IMG/VR virus record: IMGVR_UViG_3300032266_001011 | Coordinates: 1 to 29,710 of that record | Source of the DNA: a virus | Taxonomy: Duplodnaviria > Caudoviricetes | Length of the DNA: 29,710 nucleotides | Reading direction: 5' to 3' (one strand) | Program-made: the position numbers and the translations under genes | The notes under the pieces: generated by a model | Database searches by the model: none | What the model was told of the DNA's origin: nothing | Seen by the model: only the letters and a program-made list of their open reading frames with translations | Shown: positions 6,163-29,710 of the stretch, piece by piece | Position numbering within the stretch: the stretch's first letter is position 1 | How the letters are laid out: the number at the start of each line of letters is the position of its first letter

Positions 6163-6186
6163 CCATTCGGAGTGATACATACTGTT

Positions 6187-7986: not shown

Positions 7987-7993
7987 ATTGTAG

Positions 7994-7999
7994 TAAATA
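7994..7999 (+). promoter_or_regulatory. Late-type TAAATA box in a divergent intergenic gap
   Basis: gTAAATA in the 34-nt gap between 7986(-) and 8021(+). A TAACTA variant lies on the minus strand at 7998-8003. Confidence 0.5.
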
Positions 8000-8020
8000 G
8001 TTATTCAAACTTGGAAGCCT

Positions 8021-11362: not shown

Positions 11363-12036
11363 GAGATCACCTCAATACTGCACTGTTGATGTTGATTGCG
11401 ATATAGTGTTCGAAAACTTCGACCATAACTGTGAATCCATTCACCTAGCGCTCGAAATTCTCCTTGCTCCCAGAGATCGTACGATTTGACATCATGCCAG
11501 GGATACATCTCATCAAACACTATCACAGTTCCGGGCACAATACGATCATTCAACAATGTCAATATGTCCAGGGTGCTGCTGTATAGATCACAATCAACGT
11601 GTAGAAATGACACCACTCCAGGATTATGAATCATCCAAGGAACCACGGTCTGATTGAACCATCCGGGCACGAGTTGTACTTTTCTTTTGGCAAACTGATC
11701 CACAACCGCTTGTAGTTCCGCAGAGTCCAGTGCAAATTTTCCTGGTGGATTCTGTGCGTGCCGAGCGTGAACATCTGACTTCTTAAACCAAGTCTCGGGC
11801 AATCCTTCAAAACTATCAAACCCCCACACAGTTTGATTTATAAAATGATCCGAGATAATTTTCAGTGTGAGGCCTTGATATACACCAAATTCCATCACAT
11901 GCCCAGCGAGTTTTACTTTTTGTAGTGCATGAGTCAGATGACTATATCTTTGTGGTCTCTTGCTTTTGTTCCTGCAGTTGATGATCTCAGCGGAATGTAA
12001 ACAATCTATCTCAAAGTTTGTACTATCAATGATCAT
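11359..12036 (-). CDS. TylF/MycF/NovP-like sugar O-methyltransferase
   Basis: MEFGVYQG, WGFDSFEGLPE, GWFNQT, LHVDCDLYSST, GTVIVFDE. Confidence 0.85.
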   Translation of the reverse strand: MIIDSTNFEIDCLHSAEIINCRNKSKRPQRYSHLTHALQKVKLAGHVMEFGVYQGLTLKIISDHFINQTVWGFDSFEGLPETWFKKSDVHARHAQNPPGKFALDSAELQAVVDQFAKRKVQLVPGWFNQTVVPWMIHNPGVVSFLHVDCDLYSSTLDILTLLNDRIVPGTVIVFDEMYPWHDVKSYDLWEQGEFRALGEWIHSYGRSFRTLYRNQHQQCSIEVIS

Positions 12037-12722
12037 ACACCTAACCTCTGCTGACAGTATTCAGTGAAAATGCGTTCCTTGTGCCAGTCATCACAGAAAT
12101 CTCCACGATCTGCAAATTCATGAAAGCAAGGAGTTCCTAGCGTGTAATGCACAAGTTTTGCTAAGGGATTCCATTCGTATTCAACATCCAGCCAGTTCCA
12201 TTCTTTGGGCAACTCACCTATACGGTCATCATCGATCCAGGAGAATCTGTGCAAGAATGCGCCTGTTGAATTCTGCACAAATTCGGGTGTGAGTGTCCGG
12301 TTGCGTATGGCATTGCAATTCCACAAGATCACACTTGACCAGTTCTTACGTGGATAGTCTTCGTTTGGACTGCCCAGATACTTTTCAGTCATGCGGGTCT
12401 TGTAATCATGTTTCACAACCATCACATCTTTTGTGTAATCTTTAAAGTTCCAAAGTTCTGCGATATCCCCACGCACAATCATATCACCGTCGATGAATAT
12501 GGCCCAGCCCTGATAGTCCATGAGATATGGCACCAGGAAGCGTGTGTATATGAAATGATTTGATCCATCTGTGTGTGTTTCACTATAGTCTCGGAACAAG
12601 TTCAATGCCACAGGCACTATGGCCACAGGCTGACTGCTGTTGCGTATGATTGAATTCACACAGGTGTGATAAGCAATGGCTTCTCTGGGGTCATATCCCA
12701 CAAACACAGGAATGGGTTTCAT
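12033..12722 (-). CDS. GT8-related (GT-A) glycosyltransferase
   Basis: VFVGYDPRE, FIYTRFLVP, FIDGDM (DxD), YPRKNWSSVILWNC, LPKEWN, HYTLGTP. Start set at ATG 12722. Confidence 0.85.
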   Translation of the reverse strand: MKPIPVFVGYDPREAIAYHTCVNSIIRNSSQPVAIVPVALNLFRDYSETHTDGSNHFIYTRFLVPYLMDYQGWAIFIDGDMIVRGDIAELWNFKDYTKDVMVVKHDYKTRMTEKYLGSPNEDYPRKNWSSVILWNCNAIRNRTLTPEFVQNSTGAFLHRFSWIDDDRIGELPKEWNWLDVEYEWNPLAKLVHYTLGTPCFHEFADRGDFCDDWHKERIFTEYCQQRLGV

Positions 12723-12726
12723 GAAA

Positions 12727-12754
12727 TATTTATCGGCGTACATAACGGTAAATA
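12727..12754. promoter_or_regulatory. Back-to-back late-type TAAATA promoters
   Basis: Minus-strand TAAATA (12727-12732) lies 4 nt before ATG 12722. Plus-strand TAAATA (12749-12754) lies 4 nt before ATG 12759. Confidence 0.7.
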
Positions 12755-12758
12755 CATT

Positions 12759-13487
12759 ATGACGTCATTGGATGAACACTTTTTGCCCTACGAATACAAG
12801 TCGAGTTCGCAACACCGAGAAGATGGTATAATAGATCTCTTGTGCTCACACATCACTGATCCTGACCATCGTGCTATTGAAATAGGATCCGGCACCGGTG
12901 AGCAAAACATGATCCGCAATCTTGTTGAGAATCTTGGATATCATGGTATTGGGCATGATCTGCAATCGGCCACTTGGGCCCATCCCAGTTATGAACACAG
13001 GATCTGTGCTGTGGCATTGGATCAACTTGGATCTTTAATCAAAACATGGCCCACACGTACCCCGGACTTTTTTAGCCTGGATATTGATAGTTTTGATTTT
13101 TGGGTACTAAAAGATCTCTTGTACAAGCATGATTTCCGCCCGGCTGTGATGTGTTTGGAATATCTCAGTTATTATCAGGATCAAGTGGTGAGTGTGCGAC
13201 CCGGATTACCCAAATACAAAAAGACCTACTGCGGATGCAGCCTGGCAGCATATCAACTGCTCACTGAACGATTTGGATATCGATTCTTCACAGTGGACAC
13301 CCACGGCGTGAACAGTTTCTTCTATCACCCAGATCGTATACGGGATGTTGATGTGTTGCAGAATCTGCCCACACATGCTTGGAGAATGTATCCTAAACAC
13401 GCAGGCCTTTCTGTGACAGCATTTCACCATGTGATGGAATTTGACCCCGTTGTTCTATTTGACAATACTCTATATGCACAAACTTAA
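12759..13487 (+). CDS. FkbM-related class I SAM methyltransferase
   Basis: SSQHREDGII, AIEIGSGTG, DFFSLDIDSFDFWV, RPAVMCLEY, GCSL, GVNSFF. Confidence 0.7.
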   Translation: MTSLDEHFLPYEYKSSSQHREDGIIDLLCSHITDPDHRAIEIGSGTGEQNMIRNLVENLGYHGIGHDLQSATWAHPSYEHRICAVALDQLGSLIKTWPTRTPDFFSLDIDSFDFWVLKDLLYKHDFRPAVMCLEYLSYYQDQVVSVRPGLPKYKKTYCGCSLAAYQLLTERFGYRFFTVDTHGVNSFFYHPDRIRDVDVLQNLPTHAWRMYPKHAGLSVTAFHHVMEFDPVVLFDNTLYAQT

Positions 13488-14205
13488 TCTCAACTGCCAC
13501 GGTTTGAATTTTGATTTTTGTATACATGATCCGGGTATAGACCGGATGGTCAGCAGAAAAATACTAAAACACAATGGCTGGGAAAGTAACATAACAAAAA
13601 TATGGATAGATCATATACGGCCGGGCGATGTTGTGGTCGACATAGGTGCTAACATCGGCTGGTACAGCAAAATAGCTCAACTCCAACAGGCTGAAGTTTT
13701 TGCATTTGAGCCCGATCCTAGAAACTTCCAAGTCTTGGAACAAAACTGTCCACATGCACATCTTTTTGAATCAGCACTGGGCGACTGTGAATCTACTACA
13801 ACTATCAAATATAATCCGGACAATTTTGGGGATACCAGAGTGGCATCCGACGGAGATGTTGTGGTGAATCAAACAACGCTGGATGCTGTGATTGGTGATC
13901 GTGCAGGTGAAATACGTGCTATAAAAATAGATGTTCAAGGTTGGGAACCACATGTATTACACGGTGCTGCGAACACCATGAAAAATTTGCCCAGTGGCTG
14001 TTTGGTAGTCTTGGAGTTTTGTCCTGTTTTGTTGGCGGAAAATAATTTCGATATGCACTGCCTTGATGATTTTTTCCAATTGTTCAGCAATTCCTATGCA
14101 TTAAGAAAAGAAGAAACACTCAGTATAGATCACATGATTGAGTGGGCAGAACTGGTCAAAAATGATTCCCAGCTGTTGTACGCCGATACTGTTAATTTTG
14201 TGTAG
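13474..14205 (+). CDS. FkbM family methyltransferase
   Basis: VVDIGANIGWYS, AFEPDPRNF, TLD, IKIDVQGWE..VL.G. Start set at ATG 13474. Confidence 0.9.
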   Translation: MHKLNLNCHGLNFDFCIHDPGIDRMVSRKILKHNGWESNITKIWIDHIRPGDVVVDIGANIGWYSKIAQLQQAEVFAFEPDPRNFQVLEQNCPHAHLFESALGDCESTTTIKYNPDNFGDTRVASDGDVVVNQTTLDAVIGDRAGEIRAIKIDVQGWEPHVLHGAANTMKNLPSGCLVVLEFCPVLLAENNFDMHCLDDFFQLFSNSYALRKEETLSIDHMIEWAELVKNDSQLLYADTVNFV

Positions 14206-14215
14206 GAATCTATCA

Positions 14216-14800
14216 ATGATGGAACATTTCTATCAAGACATCTCGGGCTTTATGAGCCACAAAAATACTGTGATGCTGGATCTGGTATTGGATCAATTTC
14301 CTGCTGAAGGCACTTGGGTAGAACTAGGATCCTGGACCGGACGCAGTGCCGCATATTGTGTGGTTGAACTGATCAACAGAAACAAACTGGGTGAGTTCTA
14401 TTGTGTGGATATCTGGAAAGGTGAAGCAGCTATCGCGTATGATCCAGCCACTGTGCAGGATCTTGAAAAGATTTTCAAACACAATCTCTCTCCGGTGATA
14501 GAACATGTAACAATGTTGAGCATGACGAGTTGGGATTCGGCTACCCATTTTGCGGACGAGTCAGTGGATTTTTGCTATGTGGATGCGGGACACAGTTATG
14601 AAGCGGTCACAAATGATTTAACTGCTTGGTGGCCCAAACTGCGCCCGGGATCTTGTTTTGCCGGCGATGACTACACCAAAGGATATCCCGGTGTGCAGCA
14701 GGCAGTATGGGACTTCTTTGGCCCAAGAGATATCCAGGTACGTAGATCGGGTCGCTGTTGGCTGGTCACAAAACCATTTGATGACAGCAGTTTGATTTAA
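14216..14800 (+). CDS. Class I SAM methyltransferase (Methyltransf_24-like)
   Basis: VELGSWTGRS, CVDIW, DFCYVDAGHSYE, WPKLRPG...GDDY, GV.QAV; AGGA SD before ATG 14216. Confidence 0.85.
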   Translation: MMEHFYQDISGFMSHKNTVMLDLVLDQFPAEGTWVELGSWTGRSAAYCVVELINRNKLGEFYCVDIWKGEAAIAYDPATVQDLEKIFKHNLSPVIEHVTMLSMTSWDSATHFADESVDFCYVDAGHSYEAVTNDLTAWWPKLRPGSCFAGDDYTKGYPGVQQAVWDFFGPRDIQVRRSGRCWLVTKPFDDSSLI

Positions 14801-14803
14801 ATA
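14798..14803 (+). promoter_or_regulatory. Late-type TAAATA box
   Basis: TAAATA lies 4 nt before ATG 14808, with no SD. Confidence 0.55.
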
Positions 14804-14807
14804 AAAT

Positions 14808-15440
14808 ATGACTTGGCTTAAACATTATCGAGACAACTACTACCACTTATTAAATCCACAAGTGAGCGGTGCCAAAAGAGGATTGACGGAAGGTCTTTAT
14901 CAGCGCGCCGAGGGATTCAATCTTGTGTTTGCACATCTTGAAAGCCGCGATCAGAGTGAATATCATATCGTTGAAACCGGCACCATGAGAAATCCTGGCA
15001 ATTGGAAAGATGGACAAAGTGCTCGACTATTCACGGAATTTGTAGAACATCACAGTGGTAGTGTGCGTAGCGTAGATATAGATCCCGCAGCAGTAGATGC
15101 TGCCCGTACAGCTATCACATCCGAGAAATTTGAAAGCACATGCATGGACAGTGTGCTGTATTTGGCCACACAATTGGATTTGGATTGTGTGGATCTTTTT
15201 TATCTTGACAGCTATGATGTAAAATGGGATAATGATCACGCGAGTGCCCAGCATCATTTGATGGAATTTCAGGTGATTGAACCACATCTCAAACCTGGGG
15301 CCTTGGTGGTGATCGACGATAACAGTAGATTTTTAAATAGCAATCAACGCACAGGAAAAGGCCATTACATTGCAGACTACTTGCAAGCAAAAGGACATGA
15401 ACCTTTATACGATGCATATCAGATCATTTATAGATTTTAA
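14808..15440 (+). CDS. Class I SAM methyltransferase-like protein
   Basis: IVETGT, SVDID, DSVLYL, LFYLDSYD, LKPGALVVIDD, GKG. Confidence 0.75.
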   Translation: MTWLKHYRDNYYHLLNPQVSGAKRGLTEGLYQRAEGFNLVFAHLESRDQSEYHIVETGTMRNPGNWKDGQSARLFTEFVEHHSGSVRSVDIDPAAVDAARTAITSEKFESTCMDSVLYLATQLDLDCVDLFYLDSYDVKWDNDHASAQHHLMEFQVIEPHLKPGALVVIDDNSRFLNSNQRTGKGHYIADYLQAKGHEPLYDAYQIIYRF

Positions 15441-15442
15441 TC

Positions 15443-16228
15443 ATGATTATTGATACTTTATTATTCAACAACGAATTCGACATGCTGGACATACATCTGG
15501 CCATCACTGACCAGTATGTGGATCGCTGGGTGGTACTAGAAGCCAGCAGAACTTTTAGCGGCATCTCTAAACCTTACTATCTCACTGATAATCTTCACAG
15601 ATATCAAAAACGCTATGGCGATAGAATCCAAGTTGTCACATTGGAACTGACAGCAGAGCAGACCAATCTCATATGCGAAACCATGATGCGGCAAGCCATA
15701 GCACCTGCACTTGCACAATACAGCGCAGAAGACATTGTGATACACGGTGATCTGGATGAGATCATCAATCCCGAATGCTGGGCAGAAATCGTGGCCACAA
15801 TGGATCAACATGATCGACCTGTCAGTTGCGGATTTGAGATGTACATGTACAAGTTTGATCAGCGGGCCGAGCGTGGATGGAAAGGTAGTGTGGTAGCACG
15901 CCGACGCATGTTCGACACACCACACGAGTTATATAAAGGTGCTAGTATCAAACGCAAAAATCGCAATCATTGCGTGGGATTAAAGACGCATGTGGGCTGG
16001 CACTGGACCTGGATGGGCTCTGACGAGCTGATACGCAACAAGGTAGTGAGTTGTATAGAAACCCAGCACAGAGATCCTGAAGAGATGTTGCAGGCATTTA
16101 AAAGAAAAGATACCATTAGTGCGATAAATCACAAAGCCACTACACATGTGGTGGATACTCAATATCCTGAATCAGTACAGGCCGTTCTCAAAAGATATCC
16201 AGCTTATTGGCATAATCCGCCGGTGTGA
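15443..16228 (+). CDS. GT17-like beta-1,4-N-acetylglucosaminyltransferase
   Basis: FNNEFDML, VLEASRTFSG..KP, HGDLDEI, GWHWTWMG...K. Confidence 0.75.
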   Translation: MIIDTLLFNNEFDMLDIHLAITDQYVDRWVVLEASRTFSGISKPYYLTDNLHRYQKRYGDRIQVVTLELTAEQTNLICETMMRQAIAPALAQYSAEDIVIHGDLDEIINPECWAEIVATMDQHDRPVSCGFEMYMYKFDQRAERGWKGSVVARRRMFDTPHELYKGASIKRKNRNHCVGLKTHVGWHWTWMGSDELIRNKVVSCIETQHRDPEEMLQAFKRKDTISAINHKATTHVVDTQYPESVQAVLKRYPAYWHNPPV

Positions 16229-17049
16229 TCGTGGCCACTCAATCAGAAAAAGATCTTCATCGTGCCGCCCGAAACGCACATCGTGCTCGGAAAAGAAATG
16301 ATCCTGTGCCCACAGCGGTAAATGATCCTGCAGGACCTGTAGATTGCGCCTGTGTTATACATGGCAACGGGTATGATTTCACCTATGTGGATCGACTGCA
16401 TAACATGCTTAATCGTCATTTGTCGCGCGGCGCTAGATTACATGTGTACACAGAAGCTTCACGCCCAGTGCCCAGTCACATGATCCGACATGACCTAACC
16501 GAATGGCCAGGGGTATCGGGGCGCAAACGCAGCTGGTGGTACAAGATGCAGCTATTCAACAGTGACCATTTCCGCGGACAATTGTTGTATTTTGATCTAG
16601 ACACAGTGATCGTGAGCAATATAGATTGGATCGTGAATCTCAGTCCGGTGTTTTTTTGGACCTTGCGTGATTTTCGATCACTGTGGCGTCCGGACTTGCA
16701 CACCATGAATTCGTCTGTGATGTACTGGAACACTCAAAATTGGAATTTGATCTGGACTCAATTTGAACAGCAGGGCATAGAGCGCATAGGCCTGCGCCAT
16801 CAACATGGTGGTGATCAGGACTATTTAAACACTGTGATTCCTGCTAACAAGCGCAGGTTTTTAGACGAACGCCGAATAGTAAGCTGGCGTTGGACAGCAT
16901 TAGATGGTGGTATGAATTTCCGAAATAGAACTTATCACAGGCCCGGTCGCGGCACTATATTGAGTCCAGAAAATAGTGTACTGGTATTTCACGGCGATCC
17001 AAAACCACATGAAGTGTCTGATGCTGTAATAAAATCCCACTGGGTCTGA
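16225..17049 (+). CDS. GT-A (GT8-like) glycosyltransferase
   Basis: YVDRLHNM, WWYKMQLF, LYFDLDTVI (DxD), NSSVMYW, GDQDY, VFHGDPKPHE. Confidence 0.85.
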   Translation: MIVATQSEKDLHRAARNAHRARKRNDPVPTAVNDPAGPVDCACVIHGNGYDFTYVDRLHNMLNRHLSRGARLHVYTEASRPVPSHMIRHDLTEWPGVSGRKRSWWYKMQLFNSDHFRGQLLYFDLDTVIVSNIDWIVNLSPVFFWTLRDFRSLWRPDLHTMNSSVMYWNTQNWNLIWTQFEQQGIERIGLRHQHGGDQDYLNTVIPANKRRFLDERRIVSWRWTALDGGMNFRNRTYHRPGRGTILSPENSVLVFHGDPKPHEVSDAVIKSHWV

Positions 17050-17874: not shown

Positions 17875-18903
17875 ATGAGTGCTATTCGTATCCTGCGCGG
17901 TGAATATCGCGGCAAAACTGTAAAAAACCAAAGCTTCGCTCTAGTAAGCGGCTTCCAAACGGGCGCCAAGGGCGGCTATGTGACTGTGCAAAACAACGGC
18001 ACATTCCCCAACTGCCCTGCCACTGTTCGCATCCGCGTTGATGCTATCTCTGACTACGAGATGATCTCCGGCGACACTGTTGAACAGAACACACCTGCTC
18101 CAACCGCAACTGCCAAGATCGCAGAGACTGAAGAGCAAGCAATGACTCGTATCCGCGAGCGTTTTGAAATCCTTACAGAAATGTCAAAAGCCTGCATTGG
18201 TGGTGACATCCGTGCAATGATCGTATCGGGCCCTCCAGGTGTGGGCAAGAGCTACGGCGTGGAACAAGAGATTGAAAAAGCCACGCTGTTTGACAAGATC
18301 GCAGGCAAGCGACTGCGAGCAGAAGTTGTGAAAGGTAGTGCTACTCCTATTGGCCTGTATCAGACTCTGTACAAATACTCGGACCCAAATTGTGTGTTGG
18401 TGTTTGATGACTGTGACTCAATCCTGCTAGACGATGTAGCACTGAACTTGCTGAAAGGTGCATTGGACTCGGGCAAGAAGCGCAAGATCTCCTGGTTGAG
18501 CGAATCTAGCACTCTGCGTCGTGAAGGCATCCCAGACAGTTTTGACTTCAAAGGCTCGGTGATCTTTATCACCAACTTGAAGTTTGACAAGATGAAATCG
18601 CAGAAACTGCGCGATCACTTGGACGCACTGCAAAGTCGTTGCCATTACCTGGACTTGACCTTGGACACCATGCGTGACAAGATCTTGCGTATCAAGCAGA
18701 TCGCCAAGGACGGTGTGTTGTTTGATGGCTACGACTTCGAGCCCGAAACGCAAGACAGCATCTTTGAGTTCATGGAAACCAACCAAGTTCGCCTGCGTGA
18801 GATGAGCCTGCGTATGGCGCTGAAGATCGCAGACCTGCGTAAGCTGAGCCCGGACAACTGGCGCCGTCTTGCAGAGACCACCTGCATGAAAGCAGCTGAC
18901 TAA
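17875..18903 (+). CDS. AAA+ / P-loop ATPase
   Basis: Walker A GPPGVGKS, Walker B VLVFDDCD, sensor FITN, Arg finger ALQSR. Confidence 0.9.
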   Translation: MSAIRILRGEYRGKTVKNQSFALVSGFQTGAKGGYVTVQNNGTFPNCPATVRIRVDAISDYEMISGDTVEQNTPAPTATAKIAETEEQAMTRIRERFEILTEMSKACIGGDIRAMIVSGPPGVGKSYGVEQEIEKATLFDKIAGKRLRAEVVKGSATPIGLYQTLYKYSDPNCVLVFDDCDSILLDDVALNLLKGALDSGKKRKISWLSESSTLRREGIPDSFDFKGSVIFITNLKFDKMKSQKLRDHLDALQSRCHYLDLTLDTMRDKILRIKQIAKDGVLFDGYDFEPETQDSIFEFMETNQVRLREMSLRMALKIADLRKLSPDNWRRLAETTCMKAAD

Positions 18904-20084: not shown

Positions 20085-21241
20085 ATTTTGTTGTTGTTAT
20101 ACTTGCAGGTCCTGCACAACAACTGACAACCGCAACTGTTGAATTTGGGCGCTGGGGAACCAAAACCAATCAACCAACCATGGTGTGCAACACCTGGGAG
20201 CAAGGATTTAATGCTGCCAAACAAAAATTCAACCATGCACTGTTTGTGAAATCAGGAACCATATTCACTGACTGGGACCAATGGCAACAACTGTTGTCAA
20301 GTTACCCACACAAAGGTCTGATCGCACACATAATTTGGCACCCGTCGGGAACCCCAGATATCAATGACCAGTGTTGGTTTGTTGATCTGTCTAAATTCAG
20401 TGTGACTGACTTGACCAAGCCAGTGACCTTCATGGTGCCGCACAGAAGCCAAAAAAATTTGCACGATGATTACACCCCGTTATGGATCTCTCCCGGCACC
20501 ACCCGCAGTGAAATCACAACATCTGGACTGGGTGCTCATCTGATTTCACAGTCACTCAATCGTGGTGACGCAGTGGTTAATTGGAATAATTCAGCGAGAA
20601 ATATAAAAAAATTCATATACCAAGACGGTCAAGACTCTTGGCAATCATGGTTAAGTGACTATTTTGAACTTAGTGAACACCAGTTCTGGGTGTTAAACAA
20701 TGAAACAGTTTGTGTTCCTAAGGTAGCCAGTCTGCTGACTCCAGGCTCAGGCTTGTATTGGATAGTGGCGGCTATGCTCGGTGCAACAGATATACATGTT
20801 GTAGATATCAGTGCCACCCAGATTGCTTTTTGCAAGCATATTTGGCACCATTGGAATGGCAAAGACTATGGAGTCTTTGCCTGGGATTTTATACAAAACA
20901 ATCAGATTAGACATTATGAATTGGATCGTGCCAATCTGTCAGCAGCTGATAGATTAGCATATGACATCCAGACTAATTTTATTTCGCATGTTGACCAATC
21001 CGCAGTTGAGATTTTTAACAATCATGGTATTACAGATCCGGTGGGCCAATGGAATCTTGCCAAGACACAGTGTTCTGTGCAATTTTCTCAGGACAATATC
21101 ATTGAATATGCGATAGCAAATAATACATATCAATATATTTGGGATACCAATGTCACTGACTACAAATGGTCCAGATTGAAAACTTCGGTCACAGACATAG
21201 AAAAGTTTAAAAAGATTTGCGATGAAAAAAGAAATAACTGA
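20081..21241 (+). CDS. Hypothetical protein, possible degenerate GT-like plus SAM-binding-like fusion
   Basis: 386 aa, ATGA-coupled. C-terminal half has TPGSGLYW...IHVVDIS, reminiscent of methyltransferase motifs I/II. Confidence 0.6.
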   Translation: MNFVVVILAGPAQQLTTATVEFGRWGTKTNQPTMVCNTWEQGFNAAKQKFNHALFVKSGTIFTDWDQWQQLLSSYPHKGLIAHIIWHPSGTPDINDQCWFVDLSKFSVTDLTKPVTFMVPHRSQKNLHDDYTPLWISPGTTRSEITTSGLGAHLISQSLNRGDAVVNWNNSARNIKKFIYQDGQDSWQSWLSDYFELSEHQFWVLNNETVCVPKVASLLTPGSGLYWIVAAMLGATDIHVVDISATQIAFCKHIWHHWNGKDYGVFAWDFIQNNQIRHYELDRANLSAADRLAYDIQTNFISHVDQSAVEIFNNHGITDPVGQWNLAKTQCSVQFSQDNIIEYAIANNTYQYIWDTNVTDYKWSRLKTSVTDIEKFKKICDEKRNN

Positions 21242-21941
21242 AAAGTTCTATCAACGGTACAAGGATGTGTGCTGGGCACCAACAGACCTAAGGTCCGACG
21301 CTGATTATGACTGGATCGCTCACTCATCTCAACTGCCGTGGTTGAGACTGGATATCCATGTGCCGACAGAGAAGATACTGAACGAAATACAAAATATTAA
21401 ACATCTATGTGTGCCTCATCGAGACGATTATGCAGAAAATGCAGGTTGGGAAAGTTTCTGCATACATGGCAAATCCTATGATGCCACTCGTGAAGACAGT
21501 TATTACTGTGACAATCGACCTTTTGAATTTACAAAAGAAGCACTGGCCCTCATGCCCGATACTGTTGACTATTTTAAAAATGCCTGGCCGCACTTGAGCT
21601 ATAAACGAGTAAGGGTTATGCGATTAAAGCCCAATGGGTACATATCGGTACACAAAGACAGTACAATATCGCACTTGTCACCTATAAATATAGCAATAGA
21701 TCATCCGCCCAACTGTGGATTTGTCATGGGGAAATTTGGCACGGCGCCTTTTGTATCCGGCTGTGCATTGATCTTGGATGTGTCTAATTATCATACTGTG
21801 TTTAATCACAGTCAGCAAGATCGGTGGCATATCATTGTTCACCAAAATACCAATGATAAATTCAAAGACCTGGTTGTGAAAAGTTATAAAAATCTGTATA
21901 ATACCATGTATGAAAAGAGCAACCATAACCATACGCGATGA
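21222..21941 (+). CDS. 2OG-Fe(II) oxygenase, aspartyl/asparaginyl beta-hydroxylase-like
   Basis: RVRVMRLKPNGYISVHKD (HxD), distal HTVFN, R.HII. Confidence 0.75.
   Translation: MKKEITEKFYQRYKDVCWAPTDLRSDADYDWIAHSSQLPWLRLDIHVPTEKILNEIQNIKHLCVPHRDDYAENAGWESFCIHGKSYDATREDSYYCDNRPFEFTKEALALMPDTVDYFKNAWPHLSYKRVRVMRLKPNGYISVHKDSTISHLSPINIAIDHPPNCGFVMGKFGTAPFVSGCALILDVSNYHTVFNHSQQDRWHIIVHQNTNDKFKDLVVKSYKNLYNTMYEKSNHNHTR
21874..21902 (+). promoter_or_regulatory. sigma70-type promoter for uvsW, embedded in the upstream gene
   Basis: TTGTGA-17-TATAAT (extended TG), 7 nt before ATG 21910. Confidence 0.55.
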
Positions 21942-23370
21942 GGTGAACATCAAGATAGAAGGCCTGGATCTTGACACCCGCAGAGATCTTGTCAAGCGAT
22001 TCAAATACGATGTGCCCTATGCTCGCTATCTTCCGGCTGTGCGGCTGGGTCGGTGGGATGGCAAGGTGGCCTATTTCCAACTGGGGGGCAGCACTTATGT
22101 GAATCTCTTGCCTGACATAATCCCCATCCTAGAATCACAAAACTACGATATCGAACTGGACGATCAGCGTGAATACACCACTACCTTTGATTTTGTACAA
22201 GTTGTAGAGACCACATATCAGGATAGACTGTGGCCTCGAGGACACCCTGCAGAGGGACAACCTATCTTGCTGCGTGATTATCAAGTGGAGATCGTGAATA
22301 ACTTCTTGGCCAATCCACAGTGCTTGCAGGAAGTGGCCACAGGCGCAGGCAAGACCATCATGACAGCAGCACTCAGCGATGCTGTAAGCACATACGGTCG
22401 CAGTATCGTTATCGTGCCCAACAAAAGTCTTGTGACACAAACAGAAAAAGATTATATCAATATGGAATTGGATGTGGGTGTGTATTTTGGTGACAGAAAA
22501 GAATATGGTAGACACCACACCATTTGCACATGGCAGAGCTTGAATAATCTTTTAAAGAACACCAAGAACGGTGTGGGAGATTGTACCATACAGGAATTTC
22601 TCGAAGATGTTGTGTGCGTTATAGTAGACGAAGTGCATATGGCCAAAGCAGATGCGCTCAAAACTCTATTAACAGGCGTGATGGCGCAAGTGCCAATTCG
22701 TTGGGGACTCACAGGAACCATTCCAAAAGAGCTGTTTGAAAGCCAAAGCCTGCTGGTGAGCCTGGGTCCCGTGATATCTAGACTGGCTGCCAGTGAACTA
22801 CAGGATCGCGGTGTGCTGGCGCAGTGTCATGTGAATGTGGTGCAACTGGTGGACATTCGCGAACACAAGACCTATCAAGAAGAGTTAAAATACCTATTGG
22901 AAGAGCCCGGTAGGCTGGATGCCATTGCACAACTGGTACTGCAAGTGAATGAAACAGGCAATACCTTGGTGTTGGTGGATCGTGTGGCAGCAGGACAAGA
23001 ACTGGTGGCAAGACTGGGCGATCGTGCGGTGTTTGTGTCAGGTGCTACCAAGGCCAAGGCCCGCCAGGATGAATATGATGAAATTGCCACCAGCACGGAC
23101 AAGATCATCGTGGCCACATACGGTGTAGCAGCAGTGGGTATTAACATTCCGCGTATCTTTAACTTGGTAATGATCGAGCCCGGCAAGAGTTTTACACGGG
23201 TGATCCAATCAATCGGGCGTGGTATCCGCAAAGCAGAAGATAAAGATCATGTGCAGATATGGGATATCACAAGCACATGCAAATTCAGCAAACGACACTT
23301 GACCAAACGCAAGGTGTTCTACAATGAAGCTAACTATCCATACACTCAGGAGAAATTGAACTGGCAATAG
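21910..23370 (+). CDS. uvsW: UvsW-like SF2 DNA helicase
   Basis: WDGK, LRDYQ, ATGAGKT, DEVH, GLTGT, GINIP, QSIGRGIR. Confidence 0.92.
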   Translation: MKRATITIRDEVNIKIEGLDLDTRRDLVKRFKYDVPYARYLPAVRLGRWDGKVAYFQLGGSTYVNLLPDIIPILESQNYDIELDDQREYTTTFDFVQVVETTYQDRLWPRGHPAEGQPILLRDYQVEIVNNFLANPQCLQEVATGAGKTIMTAALSDAVSTYGRSIVIVPNKSLVTQTEKDYINMELDVGVYFGDRKEYGRHHTICTWQSLNNLLKNTKNGVGDCTIQEFLEDVVCVIVDEVHMAKADALKTLLTGVMAQVPIRWGLTGTIPKELFESQSLLVSLGPVISRLAASELQDRGVLAQCHVNVVQLVDIREHKTYQEELKYLLEEPGRLDAIAQLVLQVNETGNTLVLVDRVAAGQELVARLGDRAVFVSGATKAKARQDEYDEIATSTDKIIVATYGVAAVGINIPRIFNLVMIEPGKSFTRVIQSIGRGIRKAEDKDHVQIWDITSTCKFSKRHLTKRKVFYNEANYPYTQEKLNWQ

Positions 23371-23371
23371 G

Positions 23372-23400
23372 TTGCATTCTTGCCAACTATAATATACAAT
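23372..23400 (+). promoter_or_regulatory. sigma70-type promoter
   Basis: TTGCAT-17-TACAAT, 6 nt before ATG 23407. Confidence 0.6.
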
Positions 23401-23406
23401 AAACTC

Positions 23407-23907
23407 ATGCGTATCCTAACACTAGACAACCGACCCTACGATCTTGACCATTTGCCTGAAGAGGTGGATGACATGAGATTTGCCATATTAGATAATTCAG
23501 ACCCGGCCAACCCAGACTATCATTACATTCCTTTAATCTTTTTGGAAAGTTTCAATGCACCTGCACTGGTATTACAGATTGGTGATTTCAAGATCAAGAT
23601 GCCTGTAGACTGGCAGATCCTGATTGGTGAACCCGATGTGGGAGATCTAGAAATGCTGCCACTCACAAGTGTGAATGATCGTGGGTTCAAAGTATTCCAA
23701 TTCAATCCACTCAGCAGTTTCCGACCTAGCTTTCCATCTTTAGAGATAATCGACGTATATCAAGAAGTAGCTTGGTATGCACCCAAACTAAAGAATGGGC
23801 AGATGTTGTGTGTGCCAATCAATGATGCAGAGCAACCGGACTGTGTGTATTTCGTAAAAGACATCAGCAGAAACTGCGAGATAGTGGACTACAATCGAGC
23901 CTGGTAA
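23407..23907 (+). CDS. Hypothetical beta-rich protein
   Basis: Start reset to ATG 23407 (MRILTLDN) from the promoter position; 166 aa. Confidence 0.75.
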   Translation: MRILTLDNRPYDLDHLPEEVDDMRFAILDNSDPANPDYHYIPLIFLESFNAPALVLQIGDFKIKMPVDWQILIGEPDVGDLEMLPLTSVNDRGFKVFQFNPLSSFRPSFPSLEIIDVYQEVAWYAPKLKNGQMLCVPINDAEQPDCVYFVKDISRNCEIVDYNRAW

Positions 23908-24197: not shown

Positions 24198-24487
24198 AAA
24201 AGACTGTTAAACTCGCACCTGCTGACCCGTATACAGAAAAGTGGACTGACCTGTGGCTTACCAAGGAGTATGAACCAGATGCCTGGGAACGCATCAAATG
24301 GGACAAATTGTGGGAAACGGAAGAATATAAAGAAGAAAAGGGTGAGCCTTACTTTGAACTTGCCGGCGATGAATACCGACTATTCGAAGAATGGCGAGAC
24401 ATAACAGCAGCCGCTGAAACCAATGTGGCTTTGAAAGACCTGCTGGATCAAGCAAAAATGATCTATAGATTGACCAAGATCAAATGA
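24194..24487 (+). CDS. Hypothetical protein sharing its C-terminal motif with the upstream gene
   Basis: 97 aa, ATGA-coupled; WRDITAAAETNVALKDLLDQAKMIYRL. Confidence 0.75.
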   Translation: MKKTVKLAPADPYTEKWTDLWLTKEYEPDAWERIKWDKLWETEEYKEEKGEPYFELAGDEYRLFEEWRDITAAAETNVALKDLLDQAKMIYRLTKIK

Positions 24488-24927
24488 GCGACAAACTGAA
24501 TATTTCGAACGAGATGCGTCAACTGGACGCAAAGAACCGTGACTTCTATGATGAACTCACGCCGGAAGAACGCAAGAAGTTCTCAACCTTCCTCATGGTG
24601 CGTTGGGGATCTGCTGTGGATGGCAGCCAAGAGATCCAGGAATACTATGTGCAGAGTGTGAATCATTATCTAAACAAGCACTTCTTTACCATGCATCGAC
24701 ATCCCAAACTGCAATGGCTCATGGCCACAGCAGCCAGTCCGGGCATGGGTGCAATACGGCACAACTGGATCGCACCCAAGAAGAAAGAAGCCGGTGCAAG
24801 TGCAATAAAGAAACAACTGCGAGAATTGTATCCACATTTCAAAGATGATGAGATCGATCTCATGGCCGCGCTCACTGACAAAAAAGAACTAGCTCAACTG
24901 CAACGGGCTCATGGCAACGACAAGTAA
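24484..24927 (+). CDS. Putative clamp-loader small subunit (T4 gp62-like)
   Basis: 147 aa; KFSTFLMVRW.S, N..LN, LQW and WI.PKKK patterns resemble phage clamp loader A subunits; replication context. Confidence 0.55.
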   Translation: MSDKLNISNEMRQLDAKNRDFYDELTPEERKKFSTFLMVRWGSAVDGSQEIQEYYVQSVNHYLNKHFFTMHRHPKLQWLMATAASPGMGAIRHNWIAPKKKEAGASAIKKQLRELYPHFKDDEIDLMAALTDKKELAQLQRAHGNDK

Positions 24928-25597
24928 CTTCACATGTAGATATTGCGAACGATCATTCAGCCGAGAAACCACGCTGAGTGTGCATGTTTGCGAACAGAAG
25001 AAACGCTGGCAAGAGCAAAGTGAACGCGGTGTACAGTTGGGTCTGCAAGGCTATCTAAAGTTCTACGAATACACACAAGGATCAGCAAAGTTAAAAGGAT
25101 GGGATGACTTTGTGATATCCCCATACTATCGTGCGTTTGTGAAGTGGGGTAGGTATTGTGTGGATGTGAGAGTAATCCAGCCAGAACGATTCCTTGAATG
25201 GTTGCTGAAAGGTAATCGAAAGATTGACAACTGGTGCAGTGATAAGCTATACACAGAGTATCTCGTGACCCATGTGCAGAAAGAAACTGTGAACGATGCT
25301 CTGGCCAGAGCCATTGAATACAGCATTGATTGGAGTGAGCGGACTGATTCTCCTTCACATGATTGTTTGAGATATGGCAGCGCCAATGCCACATGCTATG
25401 CTGTCACAACAGGCAGGATTAGTGCTTGGGTGATCTACAATTCGGAATCTGGGCAGAAGTTCCTATCAGATCTCAATGCAGAGCAAGTGGCAATGATATG
25501 GCCTTACATTGATTCAGATATATGGCAGAAGAAGTTTGCGGATTATCCTGCTGATCAGGAATACGCACGAGAGATTTTAACACAAGCAGGATGGTGA
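24911..25597 (+). CDS. Zinc-finger (CxxC-x12-HxC) protein
   Basis: FTCRYCERSFSRETTLSVHVC at the N-terminus, followed by a helical domain. Confidence 0.75.
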   Translation: MATTSNFTCRYCERSFSRETTLSVHVCEQKKRWQEQSERGVQLGLQGYLKFYEYTQGSAKLKGWDDFVISPYYRAFVKWGRYCVDVRVIQPERFLEWLLKGNRKIDNWCSDKLYTEYLVTHVQKETVNDALARAIEYSIDWSERTDSPSHDCLRYGSANATCYAVTTGRISAWVIYNSESGQKFLSDLNAEQVAMIWPYIDSDIWQKKFADYPADQEYAREILTQAGW

Positions 25598-25598
25598 A

Positions 25599-25955
25599 AT
25601 GATCAAACATGTATACACTAATGGACCATATATAACCACAACAAACAACCCGGCCACCAACTACATGAACAACTACAGCGGTGCTCAAGGGCTGGGTAAC
25701 ATGCGATTCAACACAAGCACTCAGAGCGTGGAAGTGTATGATGGAATGATGTGGAGACCAATGGAGATGAGCACTGCAAATGTGAGTCTCACATCAGATG
25801 CTGTGGCAGCCATTGCTTGGGCCAATCAACAGCGCCATGAAGAAATGAAAATAAAAGAATTGGCTGAACGGCATCCTGCTGTGGCTGATCAGTTGGCAGC
25901 GGTGCGCGAAGCCGAAGAAAAACTGCGAATGGTCACACTCCTGGTCCAGTCATGA
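25599..25955 (+). CDS. Hypothetical protein
   Basis: 118 aa; GNMRFN......EVYDG..W motif and a C-terminal coiled coil. Confidence 0.75.
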   Translation: MIKHVYTNGPYITTTNNPATNYMNNYSGAQGLGNMRFNTSTQSVEVYDGMMWRPMEMSTANVSLTSDAVAAIAWANQQRHEEMKIKELAERHPAVADQLAAVREAEEKLRMVTLLVQS

Positions 25956-26521
25956 GCGCAGACATTGACATTGATGTGCCCAATAGGGATGCTGTGCTGG
26001 CATTGATCCAGCATACAGCCGCACGGCAAAGCAACGGGCGCCGACACAACTCCGGCATCTATGTCACTGAGATTCCCAGAGATCCTGTGACGGGTACAAG
26101 TGCATTGGATTATGAAACAGCCGAGGCCCGCGGCTACTTCAAGATCGATTTATTGAACATGAGTGTGTATAATTTAGTGCGAGATCCTGCACACTATGAA
26201 GAGATGTTAGCGGCAGAGCCGCCCTGGAGTAGATTGTGGACAGATCCAGAATGGTCCCGGCAACTAGTGCATGTAGGCAACTACACTGATTTGCTGCGGA
26301 CAATGCAGCCAGATTCAATCCCTAGGATGGCTGCGTTTATTTCAGTAATCCGTCCAGGCAAAGCACACTTACAGAATCAGCCCTGGAATCGAGTTTTTGA
26401 GTCAGTGTGGGATGGAGATGACAGTAGAGGTTATACGTTCAAAAAAGCTCATGCTGTGGGATATGCAGCCTTGGTGGCCTTGCACATGAACTTACTCAAC
26501 TCGACGAACCAGGGTAATTGA
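25952..26521 (+). CDS. dnaE: Miniature DNA polymerase III alpha-like (DnaE palm/fingers only)
   Basis: ADIDIDV, HNSGIYV, GYFKIDLL, AAFISVIRPG and GYTFKKAHAVGYA match the DnaE motifs PDIDID, HAAGV, GLLKxD, ALxRPG and YGFNKSHAxAY in order. Confidence 0.85.
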   Translation: MSADIDIDVPNRDAVLALIQHTAARQSNGRRHNSGIYVTEIPRDPVTGTSALDYETAEARGYFKIDLLNMSVYNLVRDPAHYEEMLAAEPPWSRLWTDPEWSRQLVHVGNYTDLLRTMQPDSIPRMAAFISVIRPGKAHLQNQPWNRVFESVWDGDDSRGYTFKKAHAVGYAALVALHMNLLNSTNQGN

Positions 26522-26932: not shown

Positions 26933-28024
26933 ATGTATTCAACCCAGATCTATATCTATCAACAAATCCAACGTGTGTTGGTATTGGATACCACAGATGG
27001 TGATGTTTTTGACCGGAGGTGGGATCCTGTGTACGCTAAAAAACTAACCATCAACAAGGGTGTTGACAATGTGATTTTGTTTGAGTTCATCAATCAAGAT
27101 CAAAAACCTGTGAACATCACCGGATCAGCATTGCGATTCAGACTGATCAATCTAGCGGGCACAGCCCTGCTGATTGAAAAAGACATGGTCATAATCAACG
27201 CTCAGTTTGGTCGTGCCAAGGTCATACTCACAGCAGCAGAGACCACAGAGTTTCCGCCAGAACCCTCAAGTTATAGCATAGAACGAGCCAGTGGCAATCT
27301 TGTGGAAGCAGTGTTCGTGGATGCCCAAGCACAAGGCCGTGGCGATGTGGACATTGTTGATTCAGTCAAGCCGGCTTTTGTGCCCAGCCAGTTGGTCACC
27401 ATTCCCACAATCTATGGTCCGGAATCTTATGTTGATCCGGTGTTCAATTCCAACTATCCTGATTGGGCATTGAATCCACCAGGTGCGTATGGCAATGTAT
27501 TCAATGACCCACAACGATTCAGCAGTCATGTGCCCACCAATGGTACCAGCTTTACCACATTCCAGATGGAGATGGATCACTACACCGGAAATGTCAAAGT
27601 GCAAGGTGCCCAGAACTACGAATCTGTTTGGGCAGATGTTACAGAGTTGCAGAGCTATTACAACAAAAGTGGTGCCGACTATATCAATGTGGTGGGATAT
27701 CATCCGCTGTTGAGATTGGTAAGTGATCAATGGCCGGGCACAGAACAAGTGCAGTTGGCCCTGGCCACGGCCACCGGAGCCAATGGGGTGATCACCGGGA
27801 TCACTGTGACTCAAGCTGGATATGGATATCTTGCACCTCCTAAGGTCAATATTATTGGTTTAGGTGCAGGTGCTGTGGCCGAAGCAGAAATTACTGGCGA
27901 TCAGGTCAGTGCCATAAATGTTATAGACGGTGGCGCAGGGTATGTGGCCAATCCACAACAAAGCAATCGGGTAGCGGTAATCGGTATCAGTCGCGGAGCC
28001 ATCATAAGCATACTGGTCAGATGA
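26933..28024 (+). CDS. Putative virion structural (baseplate/tail-associated) protein
   Basis: Ig-like N-terminal region (F.FINQDQKPVNITG). C-terminal ITVTQAGYGY..PP.V.I.G.GAGA.A.A and INVIDGGAGY repeats are typical of T4-like phage structural proteins. Late promoter and GGAG SD. Confidence 0.65.
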   Translation: MYSTQIYIYQQIQRVLVLDTTDGDVFDRRWDPVYAKKLTINKGVDNVILFEFINQDQKPVNITGSALRFRLINLAGTALLIEKDMVIINAQFGRAKVILTAAETTEFPPEPSSYSIERASGNLVEAVFVDAQAQGRGDVDIVDSVKPAFVPSQLVTIPTIYGPESYVDPVFNSNYPDWALNPPGAYGNVFNDPQRFSSHVPTNGTSFTTFQMEMDHYTGNVKVQGAQNYESVWADVTELQSYYNKSGADYINVVGYHPLLRLVSDQWPGTEQVQLALATATGANGVITGITVTQAGYGYLAPPKVNIIGLGAGAVAEAEITGDQVSAINVIDGGAGYVANPQQSNRVAVIGISRGAIISILVR

Positions 28025-28752
28025 CATTTAAAAAAATCGTAGGGTTTGGTGATAGCTGGATGTATGGTGATGAACTGTTGGATCCGGAACTCCGTGGCCG
28101 ATACCCTGATGCACATTCATGCTGGCATCAAAATGATGTATACCGCAACAGTCACAACTTCTTGGGACTACTGGGCGACCATTATGGTGTACCTGTGGAA
28201 AATTTTGGCATCGCCGGCGGCAGCATGCAGAGTTCAATCTGGACATTCCAATGGTGGCTGGATCATGAACCAGACCCGGGTTCGTGTTTGATTCTGGTAG
28301 GGCATACAGACTCTGACCGACTCAGCTTTTACAATCCCAATCATCGCAGTTACGCCAATGATCCTCCGTGGAATCGGTTCGTACACTCCACCTGGGTGCA
28401 GTATGGGTCGAGCGTGGTACCTGAAGAATTCCGCACCATGGTCAAGCAACAACTGGTGCTGACCAATTGCGCTGAATTGGCAAAATTAAATTATCAACAG
28501 ACTGTACAGTTTTTTGATGGAGTAGCAGTTAGAAAAAATCTCAACATGATGCAGTTTCACATCATGCCCGAGGATATCAAAATGGATCTTCCTACCATGA
28601 TCTGGCCGGGCTTTAGTACCACCATCTGGTTCCGAGACCATCCTGGCAACCGGCATCGAGAACTCATAATGCCCGGCGGTCATCCTAACGAGATTGGGCA
28701 TGTGATGATATCAGAAAAGTTGATTTTTACCATAGACTCTGCTACAATGTAA
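28021..28752 (+). CDS. SGNH/GDSL-like hydrolase
   Basis: GFGDSW (block I), NFGIAGGS (block II), GGHPNEIGH (block V). Confidence 0.7.
   Translation: MTFKKIVGFGDSWMYGDELLDPELRGRYPDAHSCWHQNDVYRNSHNFLGLLGDHYGVPVENFGIAGGSMQSSIWTFQWWLDHEPDPGSCLILVGHTDSDRLSFYNPNHRSYANDPPWNRFVHSTWVQYGSSVVPEEFRTMVKQQLVLTNCAELAKLNYQQTVQFFDGVAVRKNLNMMQFHIMPEDIKMDLPTMIWPGFSTTIWFRDHPGNRHRELIMPGGHPNEIGHVMISEKLIFTIDSATM
28720..28748 (+). promoter_or_regulatory. sigma70-type promoter for primase, inside the 3' end of the upstream gene
   Basis: TTGATT-17-TACAAT (extended TG), 6 nt before ATG 28755. Confidence 0.6.
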
Positions 28753-28754
28753 GG

Positions 28755-29710
28755 ATGCTTGACATCCTTGGTTATCTGCCTGCGAAACGAAAAGCCACGC
28801 CTTCAGGTTGGATATCGTTCAACGCTGTGTGCTGTGCTCACAATGGCAGTACAACGGATCGACGCAGCCGAGGGGGTCTCAAACCCACAGAAACAGGTTG
28901 GAGTTATCACTGTTTCAACTGCAACTACACCGCCAGCTTTATCCTTGGACGTTCAATGAGTTTTAAGGCCCGCAGGCTCTTGAGTTGGATGGGTGTGCCC
29001 GACGCAGAGATTGATGCGTTAAACTTGGAAAGTCTCCGACATCGCAGCATACATGGTATCCTAGATGATCGCCAGAGGATGTTCAGCACCCTGGCAGGTA
29101 TTGAATTTGAAGAACAAGAACTACCGGCATTGAGTGAGTTGCTGACCGGCGAAGATCCTCGTCGAGATTATCTAAGGCAACGATGTGTGCCCGATGACTA
29201 TCCTGTGATGATACAAGATCATCCAGAACAAGCATGGCAACATCGCCCCAGTGTGATCATTCCATTCACCCACGACGATCGCATAGTAGGACACACGCAG
29301 AGATTCTTGGACGACCGCAAACCCAAATACATCAGCAACAGCCAACCCGGATATGTGTTCGGCACAGACTTACAGCATGCAGATTGGATTCATGTGATCG
29401 TGGTAGAAGGCATATTTGATGCGTTATGTATCAGTGCTCTTGCTGTGATGCACAGCACCATATCAGATGAGCAAGCAAGACTGATCCGTAGCCTGGGCCG
29501 AGAGATCACAGTGGTGCCAGATCAAGACTTGTCAGGTATGGAACTGGTGGATCGTGCTGTGGAACTGGGTTGGGCAGTGAGCATGCCTCCTTGGCCGGAT
29601 GACATCAAGGATGTGAATGACAGTGTGGTCCGTTATGGCAGGCTGGCAACTGTGCTAACTATATTTGAAAATCGTGAAACCAGTCGGATCAAAATAGAAC
29701 TAAGGAAGAA
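28755..29710 (+). CDS. gp61: DNA primase (T4 gp61-like), 3'-truncated by the window edge
   Basis: Manual translation MLDILGYLPAKRKATPSGWISFNAVCC...YHCFNC (Zn domain)...IIPF...PKY...VVEGIFDA...VPDQD..G...KDVND (TOPRIM). Absent from the ORF track because it has no stop codon in the window. Confidence 0.9.
   Translation, partial: MLDILGYLPAKRKATPSGWISFNAVCCAHNGSTTDRRSRGGLKPTETGWSYHCFNCNYTASFILGRSMSFKARRLLSWMGVPDAEIDALNLESLRHRSIHGILDDRQRMFSTLAGIEFEEQELPALSELLTGEDPRRDYLRQRCVPDDYPVMIQDHPEQAWQHRPSVIIPFTHDDRIVGHTQRFLDDRKPKYISNSQPGYVFGTDLQHADWIHVIVVEGIFDALCISALAVMHSTISDEQARLIRSLGREITVVPDQDLSGMELVDRAVELGWAVSMPPWPDDIKDVNDSVVRYGRLATVLTIFENRETSRIKIELRK

Follow-up and report, generated by a model that had tools for sequence, protein, structure and literature searches.

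The open reading frame (ORF) described here lies in a 29,710-base IMG/VR virus record, the whole of which was analyzed and is referred to below as the window. CheckV places the record at ~9% completeness, and the genes it carries are those of a region for replication and recombination in a T4-like jumbo phage; a gp32-type SSB, UvsX and UvsY are also encoded in the window, together with a sugar, methyltransferase and glycosyltransferase island. The ORF itself, at 25952..26521 on the plus strand, starts with ATG and runs intact for 189 amino acids, as read from the ORF list and the sequence. Its start codon (ATG, 25952-25954) overlaps the stop codon (TGA, 25953-25955) of the upstream ORF at 25599..25955, so the ATGA coupling claimed in the first-pass annotation for an intact reading frame is real. 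The genes that bear on its interpretation are as follows, with the ORF of interest listed under the assignment that is argued for below, and its product referred to hereafter as the C-unit.

17875-18903: AAA+ ORF
21910..23370, plus strand: SF2 (UvsW-type) DNA helicase, which opens a conserved gene block
23380..23907, plus strand: conserved 175-aa ORF (phrog_11279) of the same block
24484..24927, plus strand: conserved 147-aa ORF (phrog_11758) of the same block
24911..25597, plus strand: C2HC zinc-finger and all-alpha protein, 228 aa (phrog_11058)
25599..25955, plus strand: 118-aa ORF, ATGA-coupled to the C-unit gene
25952..26521, plus strand: putative C-terminal (Mg2+/template-binding) unit of a split minimal DNA Pol III alpha, 189 aa
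26492..26869, minus strand: convergent conserved 125-aa ORF (phrog_11637)
26933..28024, plus strand: 363-aa protein with matches to virion and baseplate families, within the conserved block
28755..29708, plus strand: gp61-type DNA primase (Toprim), cut by the window end, which closes the conserved block

The order of this block (helicase, 23380 ORF, 24484 ORF, zinc-finger protein, C-unit, reverse ORF, structural-like protein, primase) is kept in all four relatives compared (G005, G008, G006 and PA5oct) and in RaK2, and in every relative checked the primase lies two genes away from the C-unit gene. The reverse ORF overlaps the 3′ end of the C-unit gene by 30 nt and occupies the same place in four of four distant relatives, while the PA5oct and RaK2 counterparts of the 363-aa protein carry a structural-protein annotation. 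The 118-aa ORF, which found no match in G005, G008, G006 or PA5oct, is confined to the close lineage of the window; the small gene that fills the same slot in RaK2 bears no relation to it. The clamp loader that had been counted among the neighbors at first pass was not confirmed, as all that the AAA+ ORF has in common with PA5oct’s gp44-type clamp loader is a Walker A stretch.

Five DnaE motifs are present in the translation in the correct order, as was first noticed, and all are colinear with DnaE: DIDID at residues 4-8, HNSG at 32-35, FKID at 63-66, IRPG at 133-136 and YTFKKAHA at 161-168. In E. coli DnaE, with positions taken from the MG1655 dnaE gene, the motifs are DFDVDF at 401, GKHAGG at 509, KFD at 553-555, FRPGP at 638 and FNKSH at 756. 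HMMER aligned four ordered, colinear segments of the C-unit with M. tuberculosis DnaE1 and E. coli alpha, and hhalign equated C-unit residues 29-137 with E. coli DnaE 508-642 (probability 52%, E 1.5e-4). Residue by residue, the alignments pair D4, D6 and D8 of the C-unit with D401, D403 and D405 of E. coli DnaE; H32 with H511; K64 and D66 with K553 and D555; R134 with R639; and F163, K165 and H167 with F756, K758 and H760. We take D401, D403 and D555 to be the catalytic residues of E. coli DnaE. Because D4 aligns with D401 and D6 with D403, the catalytic pair of the C-unit is D4/D6 and not D6/D8 as originally assigned, D8 being the equivalent of D405.

The mapping also delineates what has been kept and what has been lost. 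The C-unit, a stand-alone small protein, starts three residues before the first Asp and retains the second part of the DnaE palm, comprising the DxDxD, H-x-x-G and K-x-D strands, followed by a trimmed fingers piece that bears the RPG and F-x-K-x-H motifs. Absent are the first palm strand, the GS phosphate-binding loop, the clamp-binding and OB parts, and anything past E. coli DnaE residue ~780. The spacing between D6 and D66 is 60 residues, against 152 between D403 and D555 in E. coli. The ~100 residues of the thumb (E. coli 406-507) are replaced by 20, and ~115 residues of the fingers (E. coli 643-755, including R709/R710) are replaced by ~25, leaving ~90 missing. Deletion of the thumb and absence of the PHP and other DnaE domains, proposed at first pass, are thereby upheld by hhalign, domain searches and structure comparison alike, and HhH parts are missing as well.

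The C-unit belongs to a large protein family. It matches phrog_11778 (‘DNA polymerase’, 197 positions) over its full length with an E value of 1.5e-49, residues 3-184 falling on profile positions 7-193, and the DnaE-type phrog_405 (1190 positions) matches residues 150-181. Of 5663 candidate clusters (proteins of 103-331 aa) in a collection of 5.8 billion proteins, 5608 reach E ≤ 0.001, well beyond what chance would give. Full-length relatives at 37-43% identity were detected by tblastn in 96 phage records, with PA5oct, RaK2, K64-1, 121Q-type coliphages, XaC1 and Phosso among the matches. Stretches of the window’s own lineage number in the order of a thousand in IMG/VR, and megablast returned no near-identical phage DNA. 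Searched against PDB sequences, a profile of 68 relatives matched DnaE chains exclusively (9 of 9), the best being M. tuberculosis DnaE1 at E 1.6e-5. As a single sequence the C-unit offers modest evidence: Pfam and NCBIfam searches gave no significant match, and the hhalign probability against E. coli DnaE is the 52% quoted above.

An AlphaFold2 model of the C-unit, computed from the 68-sequence alignment, has a mean pLDDT of 92.3 and a pTM of 0.83. The modeled strands span residues 5-9, 31-37 and 64-69, bear the acidic and basic motif residues, and are followed by a helical C-terminal half. We compared this model with 48,161 PDB representatives using VIA-align; all seven chains with Z of at least 5 are C-family polymerases. 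These are PolC 3f2b (Z 9.6, rmsd 3.7, 187 aligned), M. tuberculosis DnaE1 5lew (Z 9.3, rmsd 4.2, 185 aligned), the Taq enzyme 2hpi (Z 9.0, rmsd 4.2, 187 aligned), E. coli 5m1s (Z 7.3, rmsd 4.1, 184 aligned, chain range 400-781), 5fku (Z 6.7), 9qpc (Z 6.5) and 7pu7 (Z 6.0); the next-ranked match is unrelated and reaches Z 4.6 over 80 residues. A Pol-beta-like palm, the absence of which the first-pass annotation would have counted against its reading, is thus present in the predicted structure. Judged from these alignments, the C-unit should resemble the DnaE catalytic core in its working, yet it is no DnaE orthologue.

The GRGS segment missing from the C-unit exists as a separate protein of ~170 aa, the N-unit, in seven of seven complete relatives, and the suggestion made at the outset that 25952..26521 encodes one subunit of a split polymerase is thereby borne out. 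The PA5oct N-unit (EST35_0288, 169 aa) carries a WGVGRGS motif, matches PF07733 positions 22-97 and is encoded ~43.6 kb from the C-unit; its RaK2 counterpart is ORF162. In the nearest complete relative of the window, G005 (337,119 bp with terminal repeats), the C-unit is 72% identical to that of the window and the N-unit, with a score of 28 bits (cut-off 23.9), lies ~100 kb away. By hhalign, the N-unit corresponds to E. coli DnaE 323-394 (probability 87%, E 3.7e-6). The point of division is sharply placed. All 20 of the diverse N-units that were aligned terminate at EFLK/R, in register with E. coli FERFL 388-392, so that the break falls inside the catalytic sheet, within the 6-8 residues that separate the post-GS-loop helix from the DxD strand; the N-unit ends at the equivalent of E. 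coli ~392-394 and the window C-unit starts at the equivalent of ~398-401.

The occurrence of the two units is matched. The families are near equal in size (5608 C-unit and 5542 N-unit clusters), and both units are found in 7/7 complete genomes. A C-unit is present on all five large N-unit contigs and on one of 17 fragmentary ones, as expected for distant genes. In the opposite direction, seven of 13 C-unit records carry one N-unit each, including all four that are at least 90% complete, and the six without one are 29-47% complete. The two genes are 31-224 kb apart in the seven genomes measured, namely G005 and the GenBank phage RaK2 (both among the seven complete relatives) and five other GenBank phages. 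Mirror-tree comparison of the two units gave no significant correlation of pairwise identities (r = 0.26, p = 0.26) over 21 pairs from seven genomes, among which all divergences are deep. In a conserved block of its own, the N-unit is accompanied by a small ORF and a Cpn10-like co-chaperonin, all three present in 7/7 contigs, and by a gp44-type clamp loader, matched in six, the seventh locus ending before the gene. PHP and HhH (HHH_6) domains are absent from all seven relatives’ genomes. No genuine fused form of the two units was found: one of 449 longer candidates passed the cut-off, and this 397-aa protein proved spurious, with unrelated Pfam domains and 14% query coverage.

Within the 29.7-kb window, which represents ~9% of the genome, searches with the Pfam model PF07733, the PA5oct protein and a 20-sequence profile found no N-unit. 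The four related fragments, which include the closer relatives G001 and G002 (148-157 kb), gave the same result; as all these records are incomplete, it is no sign that the genomes lack the gene. The ~100 kb that separate the two genes in G005 explain the absence from the window and from G001/G002. The separate GRGS ORF that the first-pass annotation had proposed to look for is therefore found in 7/7 complete relatives and not in the window; as the window is without an N-unit, we infer the partner in its phage from relatives, and this front half is expected to lie outside the record.

We queried the fit of the two halves by co-folding the window C-unit (68-row alignment) with the G005 N-unit (36-row alignment) in three runs. 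The score was 0.91 in each run, and the best of three controls scored 0.01. The 0.91 mark is reached by 116 of 157 solved complexes and by 2 of 215 mismatched pairs, an approximate comparison given that own alignments were used. The runs share at least 96% of their contacts, with a partner pLDDT of 91. The predicted contacts join N-unit residues 131-144, comprising the WGVGRGS strand and loop, to C-unit residues 3-10, which hold the DIDID strand, and N-unit residues 70-76 to C-unit residues 38-40. Strand complementation of this kind is what the DnaE palm would lead one to expect, and, as a model, the pattern lends support to binding. A multimer prediction with a GRGS ORF, as was originally proposed, thus scores well with the N-unit of a relative, a pass that may reflect likeness to or memory of known folds because single-chain DnaE relatives have solved structures.

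Together, a model for the locus emerges. The product of the ORF at 25952-26521 is most likely the C-terminal unit, bearing the catalytic Asp residues, of the split minimal Pol III alpha known from group 2.2 (Rak2-like) jumbo phages. A separate GRGS N-unit is its predicted partner, and the pair would likely be an accessory DNA polymerase beside the family B replicase; we assign this reading a probability of roughly 0.88. In this model, the WGVGRGS strand of the N-unit would pack against the DIDID strand of the C-unit to complete one Pol-beta-like sheet. Neither unit is predicted to be active alone, and the pair would carry out templated DNA synthesis. Working beside PolB, it could serve to make the lagging or leading strand, to extend primers or in repair, roles put forward in the discussion of these phages by Iyer et al. 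(PMC7824862). With the thumb, the R709/R710 segment and the duplex-binding domains lost, the activity may be something other than processive synthesis, or may call for a further subunit. A literature search turned up no biochemical or genetic tests of the C-unit or the N-unit.

That same loss is the starting point for the best-surviving alternative, in which the two units form a Pol-beta-fold nucleotidyltransferase that is not a templated polymerase and performs terminal addition, short primer extension at the primase, RNA tailing or synthesis of a nucleotide signal. The thumb, the HhH/OB binders of duplex and single-stranded DNA, and the R709/R710 finger segment are all missing, and the position of the gene, which in all relatives checked is two genes away from the primase, would suit such an enzyme. 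A complete family B replicase is, moreover, already at hand: PA5oct and three of three complete relatives checked encode a family B polymerase, so that the search for one advised at first pass is positive in relatives, with none inside the window fragment. The DnaE finger motifs (RPG and F-x-K-x-H) are, however, kept and invariant in the C-unit, the structure matches at Z of at least 5 consist of C-family DNA polymerases throughout, and relatives of signaling or tailing nucleotidyltransferases are absent from all searches; we consider this alternative unlikely.

The zinc-finger neighbor invites an elaboration of the split-polymerase reading. In a three-part mini-polymerase, the zinc-finger/all-alpha protein (24911-25597) would provide the DNA grip in place of the thumb, HhH and OB parts, and the assembly would extend primase-made primers before hand-off to PolB, akin to the Pol alpha-primase step. 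The idea arises because the zinc-finger gene is upstream of the C-unit gene in five of five distant relatives and because the protein yields a confident model without a solved-fold match. The two genes directly adjoin in PA5oct, G005 and G008, and one small gene intervenes in RaK2 and in the window. The AlphaFold2 model of the neighbor has a pLDDT of 89.2; no PDB representative reaches Z 5 against it (best Z 3.3), T4 gp59, at Z 3.1, shares its rank with unrelated entries, and an Atlas search returned only unnamed viral clusters. We regard a three-part enzyme as a speculative and rather improbable arrangement.

Far less probable is that the 189-aa protein acts by itself as a repurposed minimal nucleotidyltransferase with no need for a GRGS partner, a repurposed enzyme being an option entertained in the first-pass annotation. 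What can be said for it is that the partner is absent from the window and from the four related fragments; these partner-less records are, however, fragments of 9-47% completeness, and exactly one N-unit is present in each of the seven complete relatives, with family sizes that match. Neither the GS phosphate-binding loop nor the first strand of the nucleotidyltransferase sheet is present in the C-unit by itself, and the DIDID strand of the C-unit is predicted to pair with a strand of the partner. The stand-alone option is thus not borne out.

Conservation of the C-unit gene bears on whether it is functional at all. The ORF is intact at 79 of 80 close loci, the one exception being cut by a contig end, and at 238 of 243 related loci across lineages, where it encodes 183-204 aa. 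Nei-Gojobori (NG86) dN/dS, with the window as reference and taken over the 45 of 79 pairs with unsaturated dS, has a median of 0.078 and a maximum of 0.105; pN/pS over all 79 pairs has a median of 0.19. Across 68 sequences down to 37% identity, D4, D6, D8, K64, D66, R134, P135, K137, F163 and H167 are invariant, and D4, D6 and D8 are likewise retained in 80/80 close relatives. Sequence comparison thus indicates that the C-unit gene is under selection and not decaying. The search for equal-length homologs and the dN/dS estimate that had been called for therefore favor selected miniaturization over decay, as first suggested. In RNA-library runs, at most one tenth of sampled words were found, in libraries that may contain DNA; contigs from such libraries (X2, X6 and X9) represent short fragments from relatives (85-95% alike) that partly cover the C-unit gene and may stem from DNA. 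A decaying fragment of a full-length DnaE, or halves rejoined by a split intein in the manner of cyanobacterial DnaE, which is described as naturally intein-split, can be set aside, given a dN/dS of ~0.08 with a narrow length range on the one hand and, on the other, N-units that end at EFLK/R and C-units that start 1-13 residues before the first Asp of DxDxD, which leaves no room for intein halves.

The split-polymerase assignment finally places the window among known systems. Bacterial DnaE (E. coli, 1160 aa; PDB 2HNH/5FKU) and PolC have the same Pol-beta-like sheet and motif order (DxD, K-x-D, H-x-x-G, RPG, F-N/K-K-S/A-H). Relative to these, the C-unit is about one sixth the length, is without the PHP, thumb, HhH, clamp-binding and OB parts and ~90 finger residues, and the GS-loop part of the palm resides on another polypeptide. 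The features of a C-family replicase proper, with PHP, thumb, full fingers, HhH, clamp-binding and OB parts in one chain of >900 aa, are accordingly not those of the C-unit. Short PHP-less phage DnaE-like polymerases, exemplified by a 557-aa ORF of G005 and by the Streptomyces phage ‘DnaE-like DNA polymerase III alpha’, are likewise reduced C-family cores. Unlike the C-unit, the 557-aa G005 protein is a single chain in which the thumb and the complete fingers are retained (PF07733, E 1.5e-38; PF17657, E 1.9e-14), and the C-unit is so weakly alignable to it (hhalign probability 25%) that the two represent different lineages. Cyanobacterial intein-split DnaE has intein halves at its junction, and the split phage units have none.

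The closest correspondence is with a family that has already been described. A split minimal DNA polymerase III alpha was reported from sequence in group 2.2 (Rak2-like) jumbo phages by Iyer, Anantharaman, Krishnan, Burroughs and Aravind (2021, Viruses 13:63, PMC7824862). The passages of that article dealing with this enzyme describe two proteins whose genes lie far apart, in phages that have a family B polymerase and no other Pol III domains; they propose a role beside PolB in synthesis of one strand, primer extension or repair, and regard the split enzyme as a model of ancestral Pol III. RefSeq, too, names both RaK2 units ‘DNA polymerase’. The novelty implied in the first-pass annotation therefore falls away; 25952-26521 is a further example of a known family and not a discovery, one more diverged instance that introduces no new principle. 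The family retains its own interest as a C-family polymerase core pared to ~360 residues and split through the middle of the catalytic sheet, abundant at ~5,600 protein clusters per half, and carried by phages whose replication otherwise relies on a family B enzyme of archaeo-eukaryotic type.

Compared with its best-known members, PA5oct EST35_0220 and RaK2 ORF124, the window C-unit belongs to the same family at 37-43% identity over 95% of its length, and shares their length class and invariant residues. The genes occupy the same block between a UvsW-type helicase and a gp61-type primase, in the same T4-like setting, reflected in the window by the gp32-type SSB, UvsX and UvsY. The window differs in representing a diverged lineage of uncultured phages, with the extra 118-aa gene separating the zinc-finger and C-unit genes, and in its nearest complete relative, G005, the halves lie ~100 kb apart, compared with 31-44 kb in PA5oct, RaK2 and their kin.

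The aspartate-bearing half of the split mini-polymerase (C-unit) is preceded in the window by a gene for a zinc-finger protein.

24911-25597, plus strand: zinc-finger protein of 228 aa, with an invariant C-x2-C...H-x-C finger and an all-alpha body

This gene lies upstream of the C-unit in all five distant relatives, and its product may work together with the mini-polymerase. The AlphaFold2 model of the protein is confident (pLDDT 89.2, pTM 0.79); compared with PDB representatives, it returned no match at Z 5, the top score being Z 3.3. A likeness to T4 gp59 was considered and set aside, its Z of 3.1 not being separable from noise.

The other half of the mini-polymerase, the GRGS-bearing N-unit, resides in a conserved gene block in the relatives.

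N-unit block loci: L003:7517-9651 (PA5oct); further stretches from relatives, L099, L100, L108, L119, L121, L139 and L150

On the 3' side of the N-unit, a conserved small ORF is followed by a Cpn10-like co-chaperonin in seven of seven contigs. A gp44-type clamp-loader ATPase comes next in six of these; the seventh locus stops short of that position. The first-pass annotation had assumed a clamp-loader neighbor within the window, an assumption that found no support: the window AAA+ ORF is not the presumed gp44-type clamp loader.

17875-18903: AAA+ ATPase of 342 aa, phrog_1250

Its counterpart is kept in G005, the nearest complete relative, at 62% identity.

Two further window ORFs adjoin replication genes.

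21222-21941: aspartyl/asparaginyl beta-hydroxylase-domain ORF of 239 aa (PF05118, E 1.9e-11)
28021-28752: ORF of 243 aa, flanked by the structural-like gene and the primase gene, with only a weak GDSL-lipase hint (E 0.15)

The former overlaps the start of the helicase gene. The latter has no PHROG family, and its counterpart is absent from the four relatives compared (G005, G008, G006 and PA5oct). The stretch at 6172-17049, which separates the recombination genes from the replication genes, forms an island with sugar-nucleotide and modification genes on both strands; among them are a gene for a GDP-mannose 4,6-dehydratase, five or more methyltransferase-like ORFs and several genes for glycosyltransferases.

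G005 encodes, separately from the split mini-polymerase, a single-chain DnaE-like polymerase, and thus three polymerase systems are present in one phage.

L341:3753-5423 (G005, about 93.7-95.4 kb), minus strand: PHP-less, single-chain DnaE-like polymerase of 557 aa (PF07733, E 1.5e-38; PF17657, E 1.9e-14)

Because PF17657 matches above the Pfam cut-off in only one of seven relatives, this polymerase gene is an accessory one. For PA5oct, the family B polymerase matches are divided over two separate open frames of 825 and 379 aa, ~2.5 kb apart (L084-L086, PA5oct 217.6-221.4 kb), which suggests that the PolB gene of this phage is interrupted or two-part.
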